A DNA stretch of 46,639 nucleotides, taken from a virus (Duplodnaviria; Heunggongvirae; Uroviricota; Caudoviricetes). Of this stretch, positions 4,913 to 46,360 are shown piece after piece (positions within the stretch are counted from its first letter, which is position 1; each line of letters opens with the position of its first letter). The stretch is from IMG/VR virus record IMGVR_UViG_2529293141_000012, one strand, 5' to 3'. Below the pieces are notes generated by a model. The model ran no database searches. It saw nothing but the letters and a program-made list of their open reading frames with translations, and was not told where the DNA came from. Both the position numbers and the translations under genes were made by a program.

Positions 4913-5583
4913 TGCTCCCCAAATACAAAACCAATTTCAGCCAGTGCCTCGTCCATTTTTTCGATGAACTCCGGCACCATCTCGTCAAAACTCGCCATGT
5001 AATTTTCATCCCGCTCAACCACGACATAATGCAGGCCTTCACGCTTCATTCGTGGGTCATAGTTGGCAAAGTACCAGGCATCTTTTCGCGTCACCCACAT
5101 GCTGTACTGCACCTGGGCCATGTAAGCCGACTTTATGGCCTCGAAACCACCGAGCCGGAATTTCATGAAATCCCGGGAGGTAAACGGGCATTTCAGTTCA
5201 AGGCCGTTGCCGTCACTGCATAAACCATCGGGAGAGCAGGCGGTGCGCATACTTTCGTCGCGATAGATGATCGGGGATTCAGTAACATTCACGCCGGAAG
5301 TAAACTCAAACAGGGCTCTGGCGTCGTTCTCGTACTGTTTTCCCCAGGCCAGCGCCTTAGCATTAACTTCCGGAGCCACACCGGTGCAAACCTCAGCCAG
5401 CAGGGTGTGGAAGTAGGACATTTTCATGTCAGGCCACTTCTTTCCTGAGCGGGGCTTTGCTATCACGTTGTGAACTTCTGAAGCGGTGATGACGCCGAGC
5501 CGTAATTTGTGCCATGCATCATCCCCCTGTTCGACAGCTCTCACGTCGATCCCGGTACGCTGCAGGATAATGTCCGGTGTCAT
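4903..5583 (-). CDS. exo: Lambda exonuclease (Red-alpha)
   Basis: 226 aa, [40 protein letters not shown]… matches recalled lambda Exo. Confidence 0.97.
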
Positions 5584-6365
5584 GCTGCCACCTTCTGCTC
5601 AGTGGCTTTCTGTTTCAGGAATCCAAGAGCTTTCACTGCTTCGGCCTGTGTCAGTTCTGACGATGCGCGAATGTCGCGGCGAAATATCTGGGAACAGAGC
5701 GGCAATAAGTCGTCATCCCATGTTTTATCCAGGGCGATCAGCAGAGTGTTAATCTCCTGCATGGTTTCATCGTTAACCGGAGTGATGTCGCGTTCCGGCT
5801 GACGTTCTGCAGTGTATGCGGTATTTTCGACAATGCGCTCGGCTTCATCCTTGTCATAGATACCAGCAAATCCGAAGGCCAGACGGGCACACTGAATCAT
5901 GGCTTTATGACGTAACATCCGTTTGGGATGCGACTGCCACGGTCCGGTGATTTCTCTGCCTTCGCGGGTTTTGAATGGTTCGCGGCGGCATTCATCCATC
6001 CACTCGGTAACGCAGATCGGATGATTGCGGTCCTTGCGGTAAATCCGGCATGTGCAGGATTCATTGTCCTGCTCAAAGTCCATACCATCAAACTGCTGGT
6101 TTTCATTGATGATGCGGGACCAGCCATCAACGCCCACCACCGGAACGATGCCGTTCTGCTTATCAGGGAAGGCGTAAATTTCTTTCGTCCACGGATTAAG
6201 GCCGTACTGGTTGGCGACGATCAGCAATGCGATGAACTGCGCATCGCTGGCATCGCCTTTAAATGCCGTCTGGCGAAGAGTGGTGATCAGTTCCTGTGGG
6301 TCGACAGAATCCATGCCGACACGTTCAGCCAGCTTCCCAGCCAGCGTTGCGAGTGCTGTACTCAT
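5580..6365 (-). CDS. bet: Recombination protein Bet (Red-beta)
   Basis: 261 aa, [41 protein letters not shown]… matches lambda Bet. Confidence 0.97.
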
Positions 6366-42600: not shown

Positions 42601-43009
42601 CAAATCCACGAATAACACCGGGGCGCATACCCATAGTATTAGCGGGACCGCAAATAGTGCCGGCGCGCACCAACACAAGAGTTCCGGTGCATTTGGTGGC
42701 ACGAACACGAGCATTTTCCCTAATGGTTATACCGCGATTTCAAATCCAAGCGCGGGGATTATGAGCACAACAAGCGGTAGTGGCCAGACTCGTAATGCAG
42801 GGAAGACATCATCAGATGGTGCTCATACCCACTCGCTGTCCGGCACTGCTGCAATCGCAGGCGCACATGCACATACTGTCGGTATTGGTGCTCATACGCA
42901 CTCCGTTGCGATTGGCTCACATGGACACACCATCACCGTTAACGCTGCGGGTAACGCGGAAAACACCGTCAAAAACATCGCATTTAACTATATTGTGAGG
43001 CTTGCATAA
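39608..43009 (+). CDS. stf: Side tail fibre protein Stf (long form with expanded Ala/Ser/Thr-rich shaft)
   Basis: [26 protein letters not shown]… N-terminus and …[30 protein letters not shown]-terminus match lambda Stf; ATG at 39608 (the track begins at GTG 39602). Confidence 0.9.
39990..41000 (+). repeat. Imperfect tandem repeats inside stf encoding Ala/Ser/Thr-rich segments (KTSETNA motif repeated at least four times)
   Basis: Recurring AAGACGTCCGAGACGAACGCC-type units; generates long spurious ORFs in other frames on both strands. Confidence 0.7.
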
Positions 43010-43590
43010 TGGCATTCAGAATGAGTGAACAAGCACGGACCATAAAAATTTATAATCTGCTGGCCGGAACTAATGAATTTATTGGTGAAGGTGACGCATA
43101 TATTCCGCCTCATACAGGTCTGCCAGCAAACAGTACCGATATTGCACCACCAGATATTCCGGCAGGCTTCGTGGCTGTTTTCAACAGTGATGAGGCATCG
43201 TGGCATCTCGTTGAAGACCATCGGGGTAAAACGGTTTATGACGTGGCTTCCGGCGACGCGTTATTTATTTCTGAACTCGGTCCGTTACCGGAAAATGTTA
43301 CCTGGTTGTCGCCGGGAGGGGAATATCAGAAGTGGAACGGCACAGCCTGGGTGAAGGATACGGAAGCAGAAAAACTGTTCCGGATCCGGGAGGCAGAAGA
43401 AACAAAAAACAGCCTGATGCAGGTAGCCAGTGAGCATATTGCGCCACTTCAGGATGCTGTAGATCTGGAAATCGCAACGGAGGAAGAAACCTTGTTGCTG
43501 GAAGCCTGGAAAAAGTATCGGGTGTTGCTGAACCGTGTTGATACATTAACTGCACCGGATATTGAATGGCCAGTAGCACCTATAGGGTAA
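43009..43590 (+). CDS. tfa: Tail fibre assembly protein Tfa
   Basis: 193 aa, [44 protein letters not shown]… matches lambda Tfa. Confidence 0.9.
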
Positions 43591-43672
43591 ATTCGTAATG
43601 ATTACCTAAATACGTTATTCTTTTGTTAAAAAAGTGATTTTGCTATAGGTAGGGAGTATGTTCTTGGATTAA

Positions 43673-43707
43673 GAATAAAAAATCGCCATGAAAGAGCTTC
43701 ATGGCGA
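43673..43707 (-). terminator. Putative minus-strand intrinsic terminator in the AT-rich spacer
   Basis: Hairpin TCGCCATGAA-AGAGC-TTCATGGCGA preceded on the plus strand by AATAAAAAA (a T-run on the minus strand). Confidence 0.35.
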
Positions 43708-44394
43708 GTACATAAACGTACAAAATGTGATGAAAGTAGAGTGGCGTAAGCCACTATATTAAGATATGACAATAGCGAAGAAAAGTAAATAACATTTCAT
43801 GGACGTTTAATTGTTAATTATAAAAACTAGAGTGCCCGATATTGTTTATCTTGCTTTAAAATAATGTACTCAAACCAAATTTTTGAGCTAAAAGCTCAAA
43901 TAATATAAATGCAATAATAATGTTTAATAAGACAATTAGCTTGCTTTGTATTTTCATTTCGGAATACTGTTAAGTAACTTTGATGACCCTAACAATAGAT
44001 CGGAATTTTCTTAGAATCAATGGTCACTGTTTTTGCTTGCAAAGCAAATGTTTTGGTGGTTATAAGTTGTCTTAATATAGTCACGCATGCAACTTGTTCC
44101 ATGCGGAGATTAAAGATTGGAATATAACGCGAAGATGGAATTAAATTACATTTGCAATAATCAATTTATTATTACTCAATAATTACCGATATTATTATTG
44201 TAAATTAATCATTAGAGTGCAAAAAGAAATGTAACGGCAAAATAAGAGGACGATAGCTGAGAAAAAAGCGTGCTTTCCCAATCTGGGGCAAATCACGTCT
44301 GAATGACACCTGAAAACAGGTGGTAGCCTCAAGAAGGCTGGTGATGCTGCCAACTTACTGATTTAGTGTATGATGGTGTTTTTGAGGTGCTCCA

Positions 44395-44670
44395 GTGGCT
44401 TCTGTTTCTATCAGCTGTCCCTCCTGTTCAGCTACTGACGGGGTGGTGCGTAACGGCAAAAGCACCGCCGGACATCAGCGCTATCTCTGCTCTCACTGCC
44501 GTAAAACATGGCAACTGCAGTTCACTTACACCGCTTCTCAACCCGGTACGCACCAGAAAATCATTGATATGGCCATGAATGGCGTTGGATGCCGGGCAAC
44601 TGCACGCATTATGGGCGTTGGCCTCAACACGATTTTACGTCACTTAAAAAACTCAGGCCGCAGTCGGTAA
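44395..44670 (+). CDS. insA: IS1 InsA
   Basis: 91 aa, [43 protein letters not shown]…. Confidence 0.95.
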
Positions 44671-45092
44671 CCTCGCGCATACAGCCGGGCAGTGACGTCA
44701 TCGTCTGCGCGGAAATGGACGAACAGTGGGGCTATGTCGGGGCTAAATCGCGCCAGCGCTGGCTGTTTTACGCGTATGACAGTCTCCGGAAGACGGTTGT
44801 TGCGCACGTATTCGGTGAACGCACTATGGCGACGCTGGGGCGTCTTATGAGCCTGCTGTCACCCTTTGACGTGGTGATATGGATGACGGATGGCTGGCCG
44901 CTGTATGAATCCCGCCTGAAGGGAAAGCTGCACGTAATCAGCAAGCGATATACGCAGCGAATTGAGCGGCATAACCTGAATCTGAGGCAGCACCTGGCAC
45001 GGCTGGGACGGAAGTCGCTGTCGTTCTCAAAATCGGTGGAGCTGCATGACAAAGTCATCGGGCATTATCTGAACATAAAACACTATCAATAA
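44589..45092 (+). CDS. insB: IS1 InsB (expressed as the InsAB' transposase by frameshift)
   Basis: 167-aa ORF overlapping insA in the -1 frame. Confidence 0.9.
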
Positions 45093-45122
45093 GTTCGAGT
45101 CATTACCAATTGGGTGGATGAT

Positions 45123-45866
45123 ATGGCAACTACATGTTCAGTTATATTGATTTTGGAGTCCTTTGATGTTTATTTCGGAAAAGAGAGTGTGTTTCTGGAG
45201 AGAGGTTCATCTGTACTTGTCGACTCTAGCTCTAGAGATTTTTTCCTGACATATCCTGAAAGAGTGATAGTGGCGGATTTTGGCGCTGAGTTTATTAGTC
45301 GCTATTTGAAAGCTAATAACTTAAGGGATATTTCTGATTGTAGGGAATATCCATCTTATTTAAAAATAAACTTTGCTGACTTCAGTTTAATTAAAGGATT
45401 AATTAGTTGGGCTAATCACTGTGCTGAATACATAGAAATTTTTGATGAGTCTATTGCTTTTACATGTCTCTCTGCATTTTCTTCTGAAAAACAATTTGGA
45501 GTATTTCTGTTTGGATGTTTGAAAAGCACTGGGGCTAAAGTTAAAACGATTATTCATACGGATTTATCTGCACCATGGCGTCTTAAGGATATATCATCAA
45601 GATTATATCTCAGCGAAAGTTTACTAAAGATGAAATTGAAAGAAGAGGGGGTATCATTCAGTAAGATCATACTTGATGAGAGGATGCAAATGGCTGAATA
45701 TTTACTCAGCACTCGTTGTTATCCTATTAGTAAAGTAGCTAAGGTCTGTGGTTATGCCAGTGTCTCATACTTTACTTATGTATTTAGACGTTATTTTGGT
45801 GTTTCTCCAAGTCAATACTCTCAGAGGAGTTCAGAAAGTAAAATTCTTACTCACCAGGGAATCTGA
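45123..45866 (+). CDS. AraC-family transcriptional regulator, AppY/EnvY-like
   Basis: C-terminal AraC HTH (ISKVAKVCGYASVSYFTYVFRRYFGVSPSQY); AT-rich gene; first ATG at 45123, only about 15 bp from the IS1 end (the track begins at GTG 45114). Confidence 0.8.
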   Translation: MATTCSVILILESFDVYFGKESVFLERGSSVLVDSSSRDFFLTYPERVIVADFGAEFISRYLKANNLRDISDCREYPSYLKINFADFSLIKGLISWANHCAEYIEIFDESIAFTCLSAFSSEKQFGVFLFGCLKSTGAKVKTIIHTDLSAPWRLKDISSRLYLSESLLKMKLKEEGVSFSKIILDERMQMAEYLLSTRCYPISKVAKVCGYASVSYFTYVFRRYFGVSPSQYSQRSSESKILTHQGI

Positions 45867-45907: not shown

Positions 45908-46360
45908 TTAAGTTAACGTTACCCGCTGACGTCGATATTCTCGCGGAGAGCGATAACCCAGCGCACTGTGCGGATGGTTTTCATTGTAATGTTCGATCGC
46001 CACTGCAAGATTATGCAATGCCGTTCTTACATTCGGTTTCGGCATGAACGCGATGTAGTCTTCCTTCATCGTTTTCACGAACCTTTCTGCCATTCCATTA
46101 CTCTGAGGACTGCTGATTGCCGTTGTGCAGGGCTCCAGATTCAACTCTCTGGCGAACTGCCGTGTTTCATGCGCTCTATACGCTGAACCGTTATCTGTCA
46201 GCCACTGGATGGACTGTTCCGGTACTTTATCGCCAAAGCGTTTTTCTATCGCTCCTAACATAACATCCTGCACTGTCGCTTTATCGTAACCTCCCGTGCT
46301 TGCGGCCCAGTCTATGGCTTCACGATCGCAACAGTCCAGGGCGAACGTAACACGCAGTTT
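45908..46360 (-). pseudogene. IS3-family (IS2-like) transposase OrfB, C-terminal fragment interrupted by another IS
   Basis: rve integrase-core C-terminus …[17 protein letters not shown]; reading frame continues upstream to 46360 without a start and is cut by the end of a second element. Confidence 0.7.

Follow-up and report, generated by a model that had tools for sequence, protein, structure and literature searches.

An IS1 element upstream of a patE orthologue in a lambda-like Escherichia coli prophage: probable stepwise adjacent deletions and loss of the native promoter region

The stretch of DNA analysed here (46,639 nucleotides, hereafter the window) carries an intact IS1 element which is not flanked by a target-site duplication and which ends shortly before the gene of an AraC-type transcriptional regulator. 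Comparison with other E. coli genomes makes it quite likely that the DNA beside the element was lost by adjacent deletions in at least two steps, that the promoter of the regulator gene, patE, was lost with it, and that patE, because its promoter region is gone, is now silent or weakly or differently expressed, rather than activated.

The IS1 element and its surroundings

The features of the locus, with window coordinates, are the following.

43009-43590, + strand: tail fibre assembly gene, ORF of 193 aa, annotated as 'tail fiber assembly protein' in homologous loci
43591-44339: AT-rich non-coding spacer, about 30% G+C, ending in AAGAAGGCT, the fixed left IS1 junction
44340-45107, + strand: IS1 (IS1A-type, 768 bp), boundaries from sequence
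44340-44362: left inverted repeat (IRL), beginning with GGTGATGCTGCC at 44340
44347-44374, + strand: promoter-like site in IRL, CTGCCA-16-TATGAT, 9.1 bits
44395-44670, + strand: insA, ORF of 91 aa (NCBIfam NF033558, NF050000)
44589-45092, + strand: insB' reading frame, with the -1 frameshift at A6C, 44646-44652
45085-45107: right inverted repeat (IRR), ending with GAGTCATTACC, a G-to-C variant with TTCGAG in place of TTGGAG
45107-45108: deletion junction, where L003 position 6143 follows directly on the IS1 right terminus
45108-45122, + strand: native patE leader remnant AATTGGGTGGATGAT, with Shine-Dalgarno-like GGGTGGA at 45112-45118
45123-45866, + strand: patE orthologue, 247 aa, AraC/XylS family, intact ORF with the start of RefSeq WP_000246058.1
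45880-45901, + strand: terminator-like hairpin directly after patE
45908-46273, - strand: IS3-family transposase fragment (integrase core), ORF, travelling with patE

The IS1 separates the prophage cargo gene patE from the tail-fibre end of the lambda-like prophage, which is integrated next to ybhB-bioA; after the tail fibre assembly gene, no further phage structural gene precedes the spacer. The IS3-family fragment downstream of patE is annotated in homologous loci as a partial 'integrase core domain-containing protein'.

Members of the IS1 family are about 768 bp long; their terminal inverted repeats, of about 23 bp, are imperfect, their insA and insB' frames are joined through a -1 frameshift at A6C, and they duplicate 8-9 bp of the target. 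In the window, IRL (GGTGATGCTGCCAACTTACTGAT) and the reverse complement of IRR (GGTAATGACTCGAACTTATTGAT) match at 17/23 positions, and the NCBIfam IS1 transposase model NF033558 matches the insA and insB' ORFs alike. The element is identical over 768/768 positions to the copy in the E. coli locus L001, which RefSeq labels 'IS1A family transposase, programmed frameshift'; the canonical TTGGAG at IRR is seen in L014. The element is therefore an ordinary member of the IS1 family and not a new kind of element, and the missing duplication is no argument against this identity, because it results from adjacent deletions.

The regulator is an orthologue of PatE

The regulator is identical in 247/247 residues to the protein of L001 and in 246/247 to ECs_0287 of E. 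coli O157:H7 Sakai. The single substitution is M170, where ECs_0287 has R170; in GadX, Rns, CsvR, AppY and EnvY the corresponding residue is K or R. The C-terminal double helix-turn-helix DNA-binding domain is recognized by the Pfam models HTH_18 (PF12833) and HTH_AraC (PF00165), and residues 138-238 align to the GadX DNA-binding domain 3mkl with E = 8e-24. The best NCBIfam model is that of YdeO, with 147 bits against a cut-off of 348. Upstream, as far back as the serU relic described below, the IS1-free locus L003 is 99.1% identical to Sakai over 690 bp, and the same IS3-family fragment (labelled 'ISEc48 Family: IS3 partial' in Sakai) adjoins the gene.

ECs_0287 is the only AraC-type regulator of the Sakai prophage Sp1, and its link to PatE (Z0321) is drawn from its position and from the lack of any other such regulator in that prophage; on these sequence grounds we regard the regulator of the window as the PatE orthologue. 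PatE, encoded in OI-8 (CP-933H) of enterohaemorrhagic E. coli O157:H7, is described, for the EDL933 protein, as an AraC-like activator of the acid resistance genes gadE, gadBC and hdeAB (Bender et al. 2012, summarised in PMC10877973). Z0321 is well expressed in stationary phase, and its expression is RpoS-dependent (PMC2907692). The present gene differs from that of O157:H7 in its location, at the right end of a lambda-like prophage beside ybhB-bioA and not in Sp1 at thrW, in the R170M substitution, and in the upstream region, of which only 15 bp are left. Substitution and promoter loss together may alter gad/hde activation and acid resistance in this strain. Because the promoter region is lost and the substitution falls in a DNA-contacting helix, an intact ORF annotated here as 'AraC family transcriptional regulator' should not be assumed to function like O157:H7 PatE.

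An earlier reading of the locus from the sequence alone (the sequence-only reading) had described the regulator as AppY/EnvY-like. This is correct as regards distant relatedness: AppY and EnvY of E. coli K-12 (249 and 253 aa) belong to the same AraC/XylS family and are likewise encoded by AT-rich genes in or beside a prophage (DLP12). Orthology was rejected, as identity to AppY is 28% along the whole protein, and identity to EnvY is 39% in the C-terminal 127 residues; the two are paralogous relatives of the window regulator.

Allele comparison and deletion history

The history of the locus was rebuilt by base-by-base alignment of three allele states from other E. coli genomes. In the IS1-free allele, L003, the left flank CAAGAAGGCT is followed by 550 bp, then by a segment of 191 bp opening with CTTATTGGC, and then by AATTGGGTGGATGATATG. 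In L001 and many other loci, IS1 stands between AAGAAGGCT and CTTATTGGC, in place of the 550 bp. In the window and in L002 it stands between AAGAAGGCT and AATTGGGTG, so that the ancestral 741 bp (L003 5402-6142), i.e. the 550 bp plus the 191 bp, are missing. The left junction is common to L001, L002, L007, L008, L010, L011, L012 and L018; in the IS1-free genomes it is continuous with L003:5401. Compared with L001, whose flanks differ from those of the window at only 3 sites, the window is without positions 5509-5699 (191 bp), beginning at the first base after IRR. No microhomology is present at this deletion, as a shift of the breakpoint by one base either way fails to reproduce the junction.

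Nested losses also extend leftward from the same IS1 with the same right junction, by 118 bp in L013, by 588 bp in L009, and into a porin gene in L015, while the rightward series consists of 550 bp and then 741 bp in total. Thus, an adjacent deletion mediated by the IS is recognizable from the retained element, the deletion end at its terminus, the undeleted reference and the nested series. The sequence-only reading, which had inferred that this was not a simple insertion and that an IS1-associated deletion had joined the AT-rich spacer to the regulator gene, is borne out by the three alleles, and the comparison with IS1-free genomes that it proposed allowed the ancestral junction to be rebuilt. 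On this comparative evidence, IS1 appears to have lost the neighbouring 741 bp through adjacent deletions in at least two steps. The old, widespread allele in which IS1 replaces 550 bp would have come first, either as an insertion followed by a deletion or as one single event, with the original insertion site on either side; a second deletion, in the lineage of the window, would then have removed a further 191 bp exactly from the right terminus of IS1.

The 550-bp segment contains a 62-nt relic of the tRNA-Ser gene serU, as seen by direct comparison with K-12 serU, and scans of the ancestral spacer with Rfam and tRNA models found no complete RNA gene. An undeleted, duplication-bearing insertion was searched for by querying both possible junctions separately, and none was found in complete E. 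coli genomes, where the best full-length matches were only 91.6-92.7% identical and represent chance extensions. Exact-pattern searches gave no match for the undeleted right-hand junction in metagenome contigs, and none for the undeleted left-hand junction in species-representative genomes, each collection being searched for that one junction only.

With an IS that has eroded its surroundings stepwise in both directions, the locus offers a clean example from nature and could serve as a teaching case. It is otherwise ordinary and opens no long-standing question; its value lies in annotation and interpretation.

Distribution and origin of the 191-bp deletion

The exact junction of the window, queried with 60 bp from the IS1 and 20 bp from the flank, is rare: it was found in 6 of 5,426 complete E. 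coli genomes, all belonging to one clone; no exact-pattern match was found in species-representative genomes or metagenome contigs. An intact prophage tail region together with the 191-bp deletion was found in no complete E. coli genome. Assemblies with the window junction can be recognized by the sequence GAGTCATTACCAATTGGGTGG.

Two haplotype backgrounds share the identical 191-bp junction, so that one event passed on by simple descent does not fully account for it. The window belongs with L001 (identical IS1; T45895, A46262), while the Res13 clone (L002) groups with L007, L010 and L012 (C44604, G44783 and A44968 in IS1; C45895, G46262), and each group includes members that still have the 191 bp. 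This is the pattern expected if the same deletion had arisen twice independently, either because the IS1 right end has a preferred intramolecular target at AATTGGGTG or because loss of patE expression was selected. However, repeated or mosaic DNA (IS1, the IS3-family fragment and the gene for tail-fibre assembly), in which gene conversion and recombination are common, holds most of the sites that separate the two groups, and L018 shows yet another IS1 pattern with the same junctions. Of these sites only 45895 is found in unique sequence close to the junction, and a conversion tract of less than 1 kb would account for the pattern. An independent second origin is unlikely, and the more specific proposal that the promoter deletion arose more than once through a nearby target strongly preferred by the IS1 right end, or through selection to shut off or rewire PatE, is to be regarded as distinctly improbable. 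If recurrence were true, IS1 would be acting as a recurrent switch which frees a regulator of acid resistance from RpoS control and makes residual PatE expression dependent on the InsA-repressed transposase promoter.

Mechanism of the deletions

Adjacent deletion probably proceeded by intramolecular transposition, in which the IS1 transposase lets the right IS end attack a target close by, and the DNA in between leaves as a circle and is lost. Deletions adjacent to IS elements, without duplications and often growing stepwise, have been documented in the long-term evolution experiment (PMC11708052), and deletions right beside IS1 occur in clinical E. coli (PMC10569738). The window case is of this already known kind, a textbook IS-adjacent deletion: the IS is kept, the deletion ends exactly at its terminus without a duplication, and nested deletions of differing length share a common IS end across genomes. 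Even the location, in the gal-bio neighbourhood (ybhB-bioA), is classical; IS1-mediated adjacent deletion was reportedly described by Reif and Saedler in 1975 in E. coli K-12, around gal. The present case differs in being a natural polymorphism and not a laboratory isolate, with nothing mechanistic distinguishing it, and in that the deletions are short (191 and 550 bp), that of the window removing a promoter and sparing the gene.

The same end product, with IS1 kept, precise ends and no duplication, would result from RecA-dependent recombination between two directly oriented IS1 copies, the second copy lying to the right, at 550 bp in the first step and at 191 bp in the later one, and the sequence alone does not separate the two routes. 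Such recombination is a frequent cause of missing duplications (PMC11708052), and differences internal to IS1 vary among strains with the same junctions, which indicates that IS1 copies exchange sequence. Nevertheless, it would need an extra nearby insertion in the same orientation at each step, that is, two events per step; among the loci inspected, no genome has two IS1 copies flanking the 550-bp or the 191-bp segment, and the IS1 of the window, being identical to that of L001, bears no sign of a hybrid. We consider this route quite unlikely, and adjacent deletion by the resident IS1 is preferred.

Loss of the native promoter region and expression of patE

The native upstream region of the regulator has been replaced, as the sequence-only reading stated, and the best promoter-like site went with it. 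This site, TTGGCA-18-TATACT, lies within the deleted 191 bp and ends 34 bp before the ATG; as a consensus match, like all promoter calls made here, it scores 12.1 bits, compared with a maximum of 11.5 across 300 background spans. Its TATACT -10 element fits the RpoS-dependence of Z0321 (PMC2907692). The sequence-only reading had taken the lost region to be probably H-NS-silenced; the single expression datum found is the strong, RpoS-dependent stationary-phase expression of Z0321 reported in that paper. The second deletion would thus have taken the only strong promoter-like site of patE and spared the ribosome-binding site and the ORF; the 15-bp leader remnant matches, base for base, what immediately precedes the ATG in L001 and L003.

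Adjacent deletion would leave patE without its own RpoS-type promoter, to be transcribed only as a passenger of the weak, InsA-repressed insA-insB' transcript or from the left of IS1. The site in IRL is the only credible candidate for a same-strand promoter upstream of patE in the window, and lies where we would expect the IS1 transposase promoter. The insB' stop is 30 bp upstream of the patE ATG, and no terminator-like site was found between the two. Rho-dependent termination inside IS1 could cut read-through to nothing. A reporter placed right after the insAB' stop was found to be transcribed from the IS1 promoter and the upstream context (PMC12428005). The patE allele is, judging from these sites, probably silent, or weakly read through from the transposase promoter.

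The sequence-only reading had instead suggested that the right end of IS1 might provide an outward or hybrid promoter activating the regulator. IS1 fusion promoters with the -35 element at the IS1 end are known for blaTEM-1, acrEF and blaTEM-6, as listed in Table 1 of a review (PMC9330008). Here too a gene directly follows an IS1 end that is oriented so as to donate a -35, and a suitably spaced pair, TTCGAG-17-GATGAT, exists at 45094-45122. This pair, however, scores only 2.9 bits; its -35, at the IS1 end, carries the G-to-C change from the canonical TTGGAG, and the only -10 partner of this -35, GATGAT (45117-45122), directly abuts the ATG. With a -10 ending at 45122, the transcript would begin inside the ORF, without ribosome-binding site and start codon, and the next in-frame methionine in the translation is residue 170. 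Fusion promoters, said to have been described by Prentki et al. in 1986, have the -35 in the IS, the -10 in the flank at 16-18 bp from it, and initiate transcription upstream of the ribosome-binding site; the 15 bp between IS1 and ATG leave no room for a -10 and a leader. No credible outward or hybrid promoter was found: the consensus scan gave none, and among sites within 185 bp of the patE ATG the best reaches 4.6 bits, below the background median of 6.0. Activation by the IS1 end is therefore very improbable.

The missing target-site duplication

The 9-bp flanks of IS1, AAGAAGGCT on the left (44331-44339) and AATTGGGTG on the right (45108-45116), differ, as had been noted from the sequence. 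Nor did realignment recover the duplication of 8-9 bp that might have spoken against this: no k-mer of 5 or more bases is common to the 20-bp flanks on the two sides, so that a shifted or 8-bp duplication is also absent. A simple insertion whose duplication decayed by point mutation, for which nothing speaks besides the presence of an intact IS1, has a negligible probability and is refuted by these k-mers and by the IS1-free alleles, in which the flanks lie 741 bp apart. The missing duplication is, by this comparison, not due to chance, as 741 bp are absent at the site relative to IS1-free genomes, and it calls for caution in pipelines that call IS insertions by their target-site duplications.

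The distance from the IS1 end to the regulator ATG at 45123, previously given as about 15 bp, is exactly 15 bp (45108-45122). The span 44331-45125 earlier marked for this locus takes in the 9 bp to the left of the IS1, the element itself, and the 15-bp leader together with the ATG.

Structure of the IS1 junction

The window carries a complete IS1 directly upstream of patE, the gene for an AraC-family regulator, and the element comprises the following features.

44340-45107, plus strand: complete IS1, 768 bp, first bases GGTGATGCTGCCAACTTACTG, last bases GAGTCATTACC
44347-44374, plus strand: putative IS1 transposase promoter CTGCCA-16-TATGAT in the left repeat, 9.1 bits
44395-44670, plus strand: insA, matching IS1 transposase model NF033558
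44646-44652, plus strand: A6C frameshift motif, read in the sequence
ending at 45092, plus strand: insB' frame, matching IS1 transposase model NF033558

The nine bases flanking the IS1 on the left (AAGAAGGCT) and on the right (AATTGGGTG) differ, and because the 20-bp flanks have no word of at least five bases in common, a shifted or 8-bp target-site duplication is also excluded. Exactly 15 bp separate the IS1 end from the regulator ATG at 45123, the RefSeq start of WP_000246058.1 (247 aa). The sequence-only reading, which had described an IS1 lacking a duplication and ending about 15 bp before the regulator, was correct in all details of this observation.

Deletions adjacent to the IS1

The same reading had proposed that the junction was not a simple insertion but an IS1-mediated deletion, to be checked against relatives lacking the element. 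The ancestral junction was sought in complete E. coli genomes using both flanks joined as the query, and in some of these genomes the flanks were separated by non-IS DNA. In the IS1-free locus of strain MEI005 (L003), the order is CAAGAAGGCT, 550 bp, CTTATTGGCTG, 191 bp ending in TTTCAGTTA, and then AATTGGGTGGATGATATG. In many other genomes (loci L001, L007, L008, L010, L012 and L018), an IS1 lying between AAGAAGGCT and CTTATTGGC stands in for the 550 bp, again without duplication. In the window and in the locus of Res13-Lact-ER02-39 (L002), the left junction is unchanged and the next 191 bp are gone, and therefore the IS1 terminus abuts AATTGGGTG. The window thus lacks 741 bp in total (L003 5402-6142), and this, together with the intermediate allele, bears out the proposed deletion. 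The second deletion runs from the first base past the right inverted repeat, with no microhomology. The IS1 of the window and that of L001 are identical (768/768), and 2.7 kb of their flanking DNA contain three differing sites.

Losses on the left were found with the same IS1 (2027-2794 in each of L009, L013 and L015) and with the right junction CTTATTGGC retained: 118 bp more are missing in L013, 588 bp more in L009, and everything up to a porin gene in L015. The same IS1 copy has thus caused losses on both of its sides. The chromosomal neighbourhood of the patE module is a different one in L009 and L014. In 5,426 complete E. coli genomes, queried with both possible junctions, in metagenome contigs (right-hand junction) and in species-representative genomes (left-hand junction), no undeleted, duplication-bearing insertion was found, so the earliest visible IS1 state already lacks the 550 bp.

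The retained IS, the precise end at its terminus, the missing duplication and the nested series on both sides are the anatomy of IS-adjacent deletion. According to a passage of PMC10569738 that cites Reif and Saedler (1975), such deletion next to IS1 has been known since that work, and clinical E. coli show it too (PMC10569738). In the long-term evolution experiment, IS-adjacent deletions likewise lack duplications and often grow stepwise (PMC11708052). Intramolecular transposition is the most likely route. The same end sequence would result if two nearby direct IS1 copies recombined, but this needs extra insertions, of which no trace was seen in the loci inspected, and we consider it improbable.

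The right inverted repeat of the window reads TTCGAG (45094-45099), as opposed to the canonical IS1 end TTGGAG present in L014, and the IS1 end in locus L006 carries one more change (TTCGAA). If the 191-bp deletion was transposase-mediated, the variant TTCGAG end was evidently still usable for it.

Distribution of the junction

Of 5,426 complete E. coli genomes, 6 share the base-exact junction of the window, and these all belong to a single clone isolated from pigs; species-representative genomes and metagenome contigs lack the junction; the full arrangement of the window is found in no complete E. coli genome. This IS1 end is found a few hundred bases or less from the start of the gene in about 130 complete genomes, and the identical regulator protein is indexed in thousands of assemblies.

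Comparison of window sites 44604, 44783, 44968, 45895 and 46262 with L001, L002, L007, L010 and L012 placed the base-exact 191-bp junction on two haplotype backgrounds, one formed by the window and L001, the other by the Res13 clone with L007, L010 and L012. On each background, some members retain the 191 bp. This may reflect recurrence of the deletion at a hot spot or transfer by a short recombination tract; since most of the sites that tell the backgrounds apart fall in DNA that is repeated or mosaic, and the IS1 of L018 has a third pattern, the two explanations are equally good.

IS1, PatE and deletion next to an IS are each well established, and the locus shows a familiar type of polymorphism at strain level; in the literature searched, no paper linking PatE with IS1 was found.

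Identity of the regulator

The regulator had been called AppY/EnvY-like, but it shares only 28% identity with AppY and 39% with EnvY (C-terminal 127 residues), and its best NCBIfam model is YdeO, with a score far under the cut-off. In contrast to these values, 246 of 247 residues are identical to ECs_0287, the sole AraC-type regulator of prophage Sp1 of O157:H7 Sakai, which adjoins the same IS3-family fragment; upstream, L003 and Sakai are homologous over 690 bp at 99.1%. Position and uniqueness indicate that Z0321 corresponds to ECs_0287. A passage of PMC10877973 identifies Z0321 as PatE, encoded by OI-8 / CP-933H, an AraC-like activator of gadE, gadBC and hdeAB; PMC2907692 lists Z0321 as 'putative regulator (prophage CP-933H)' and gives a six-fold dependence on RpoS and a high stationary-phase signal. 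The regulator is thus PatE and not an ortholog of AppY or EnvY.

Codon 170 of patE (45630-45632) encodes Met, as it does in every IS1-linked allele inspected, while Sakai and L003 have Arg. The equivalent residue is Lys in an alignment with GadX, Rns and CsvR, and also in AppY and EnvY, as read by eye in an unaligned stretch. Residue 170 lies within the first helix-turn-helix and is what we take to be the counterpart of MarA R46, a DNA-contacting residue. The R170M change may impair DNA binding, independently of promoter loss.

Promoters of patE

A consensus scan upstream of the gene in L003 returned a single promoter-like site, TTGGCA-18-TATACT (6095-6124), whose end is 34 bp short of the ATG. 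Its score in a simple weight matrix is 12.1 bits, above the maximum of 300 random spans of the window (11.5 bits), and TATACT as a -10 fits a promoter dependent on RpoS. The site falls within the 191 bp missing from the window, in agreement with the suggested loss of the native promoter region.

The further suggestion of an outward or hybrid IS1 promoter found no support. Among window sites whose end falls no more than 185 bp from the ATG, the best reaches 4.6 bits, less than the background median of 6.0 bits. The sole possible hybrid, TTCGAG-17-GATGAT, was rejected: it scores 2.9 bits, its IS1-derived -35 departs from the canonical TTGGAG, and its -10 extends to 45122, which would put the start of a transcript inside the ORF, past the ribosome-binding site and ATG. 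IS1 fusion promoters are real (PMC9330008), but the geometry in the window permits none.

The sole credible same-strand promoter is that of the IS1 transposase, in the left repeat. Transcription of a reporter placed directly past the insAB' stop comes from the IS1 promoter and from upstream context (PMC12428005). No terminator-like site was found between the insB' stop and the patE ATG. The transposase promoter is weak and InsA-repressed, and IS1 is polar through Rho-dependent termination. Taken with the promoter scans, this makes our best estimate that patE would be silent or weakly expressed, and freed from its own stationary-phase control.

Prophage setting

The window is a lambda-like prophage. 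In homologous E. coli loci, the same order runs from the tail fibre and tail fibre assembly genes through an AT-rich spacer to the IS1, the regulator and IS3-family fragments, with ybhB, bioA and bioB coming next; the regulator is thus prophage cargo, placed at the right end within the gal-bio interval.

A 62-nt relic, 100% identical to the 3' part of K-12 serU, tRNA-Ser(CGA), lies within the first-step 550 bp (L003 5512-5573), exactly where homology with Sakai Sp1 begins; it is missing from the window, where it would fall between 45107 and 45108. It is probably an attachment-site relic of a serU-integrating element that formerly carried patE.

L003 lacks 427 bp of the IS3-family transposase fragment downstream of patE (window 45933-46359), which the window shares with L001, L002 and Sakai; this is another small indel polymorphism of the patE cargo module.

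The spacer past the tail fibre assembly gene contains a strong palindromic terminator-like hairpin of 11 pairs (43683-43707), with a T-run behind it on the minus strand, where no gene is called nearby. The tail fibre assembly gene has, in its 3' end (43500-43550), a partial Rfam match to IS009, a candidate small RNA family; the match is below threshold (43.7 bits against a gathering score of 117), is truncated by the 5' limit of the stretch searched, and probably reflects mere homology between prophage tfa genes.
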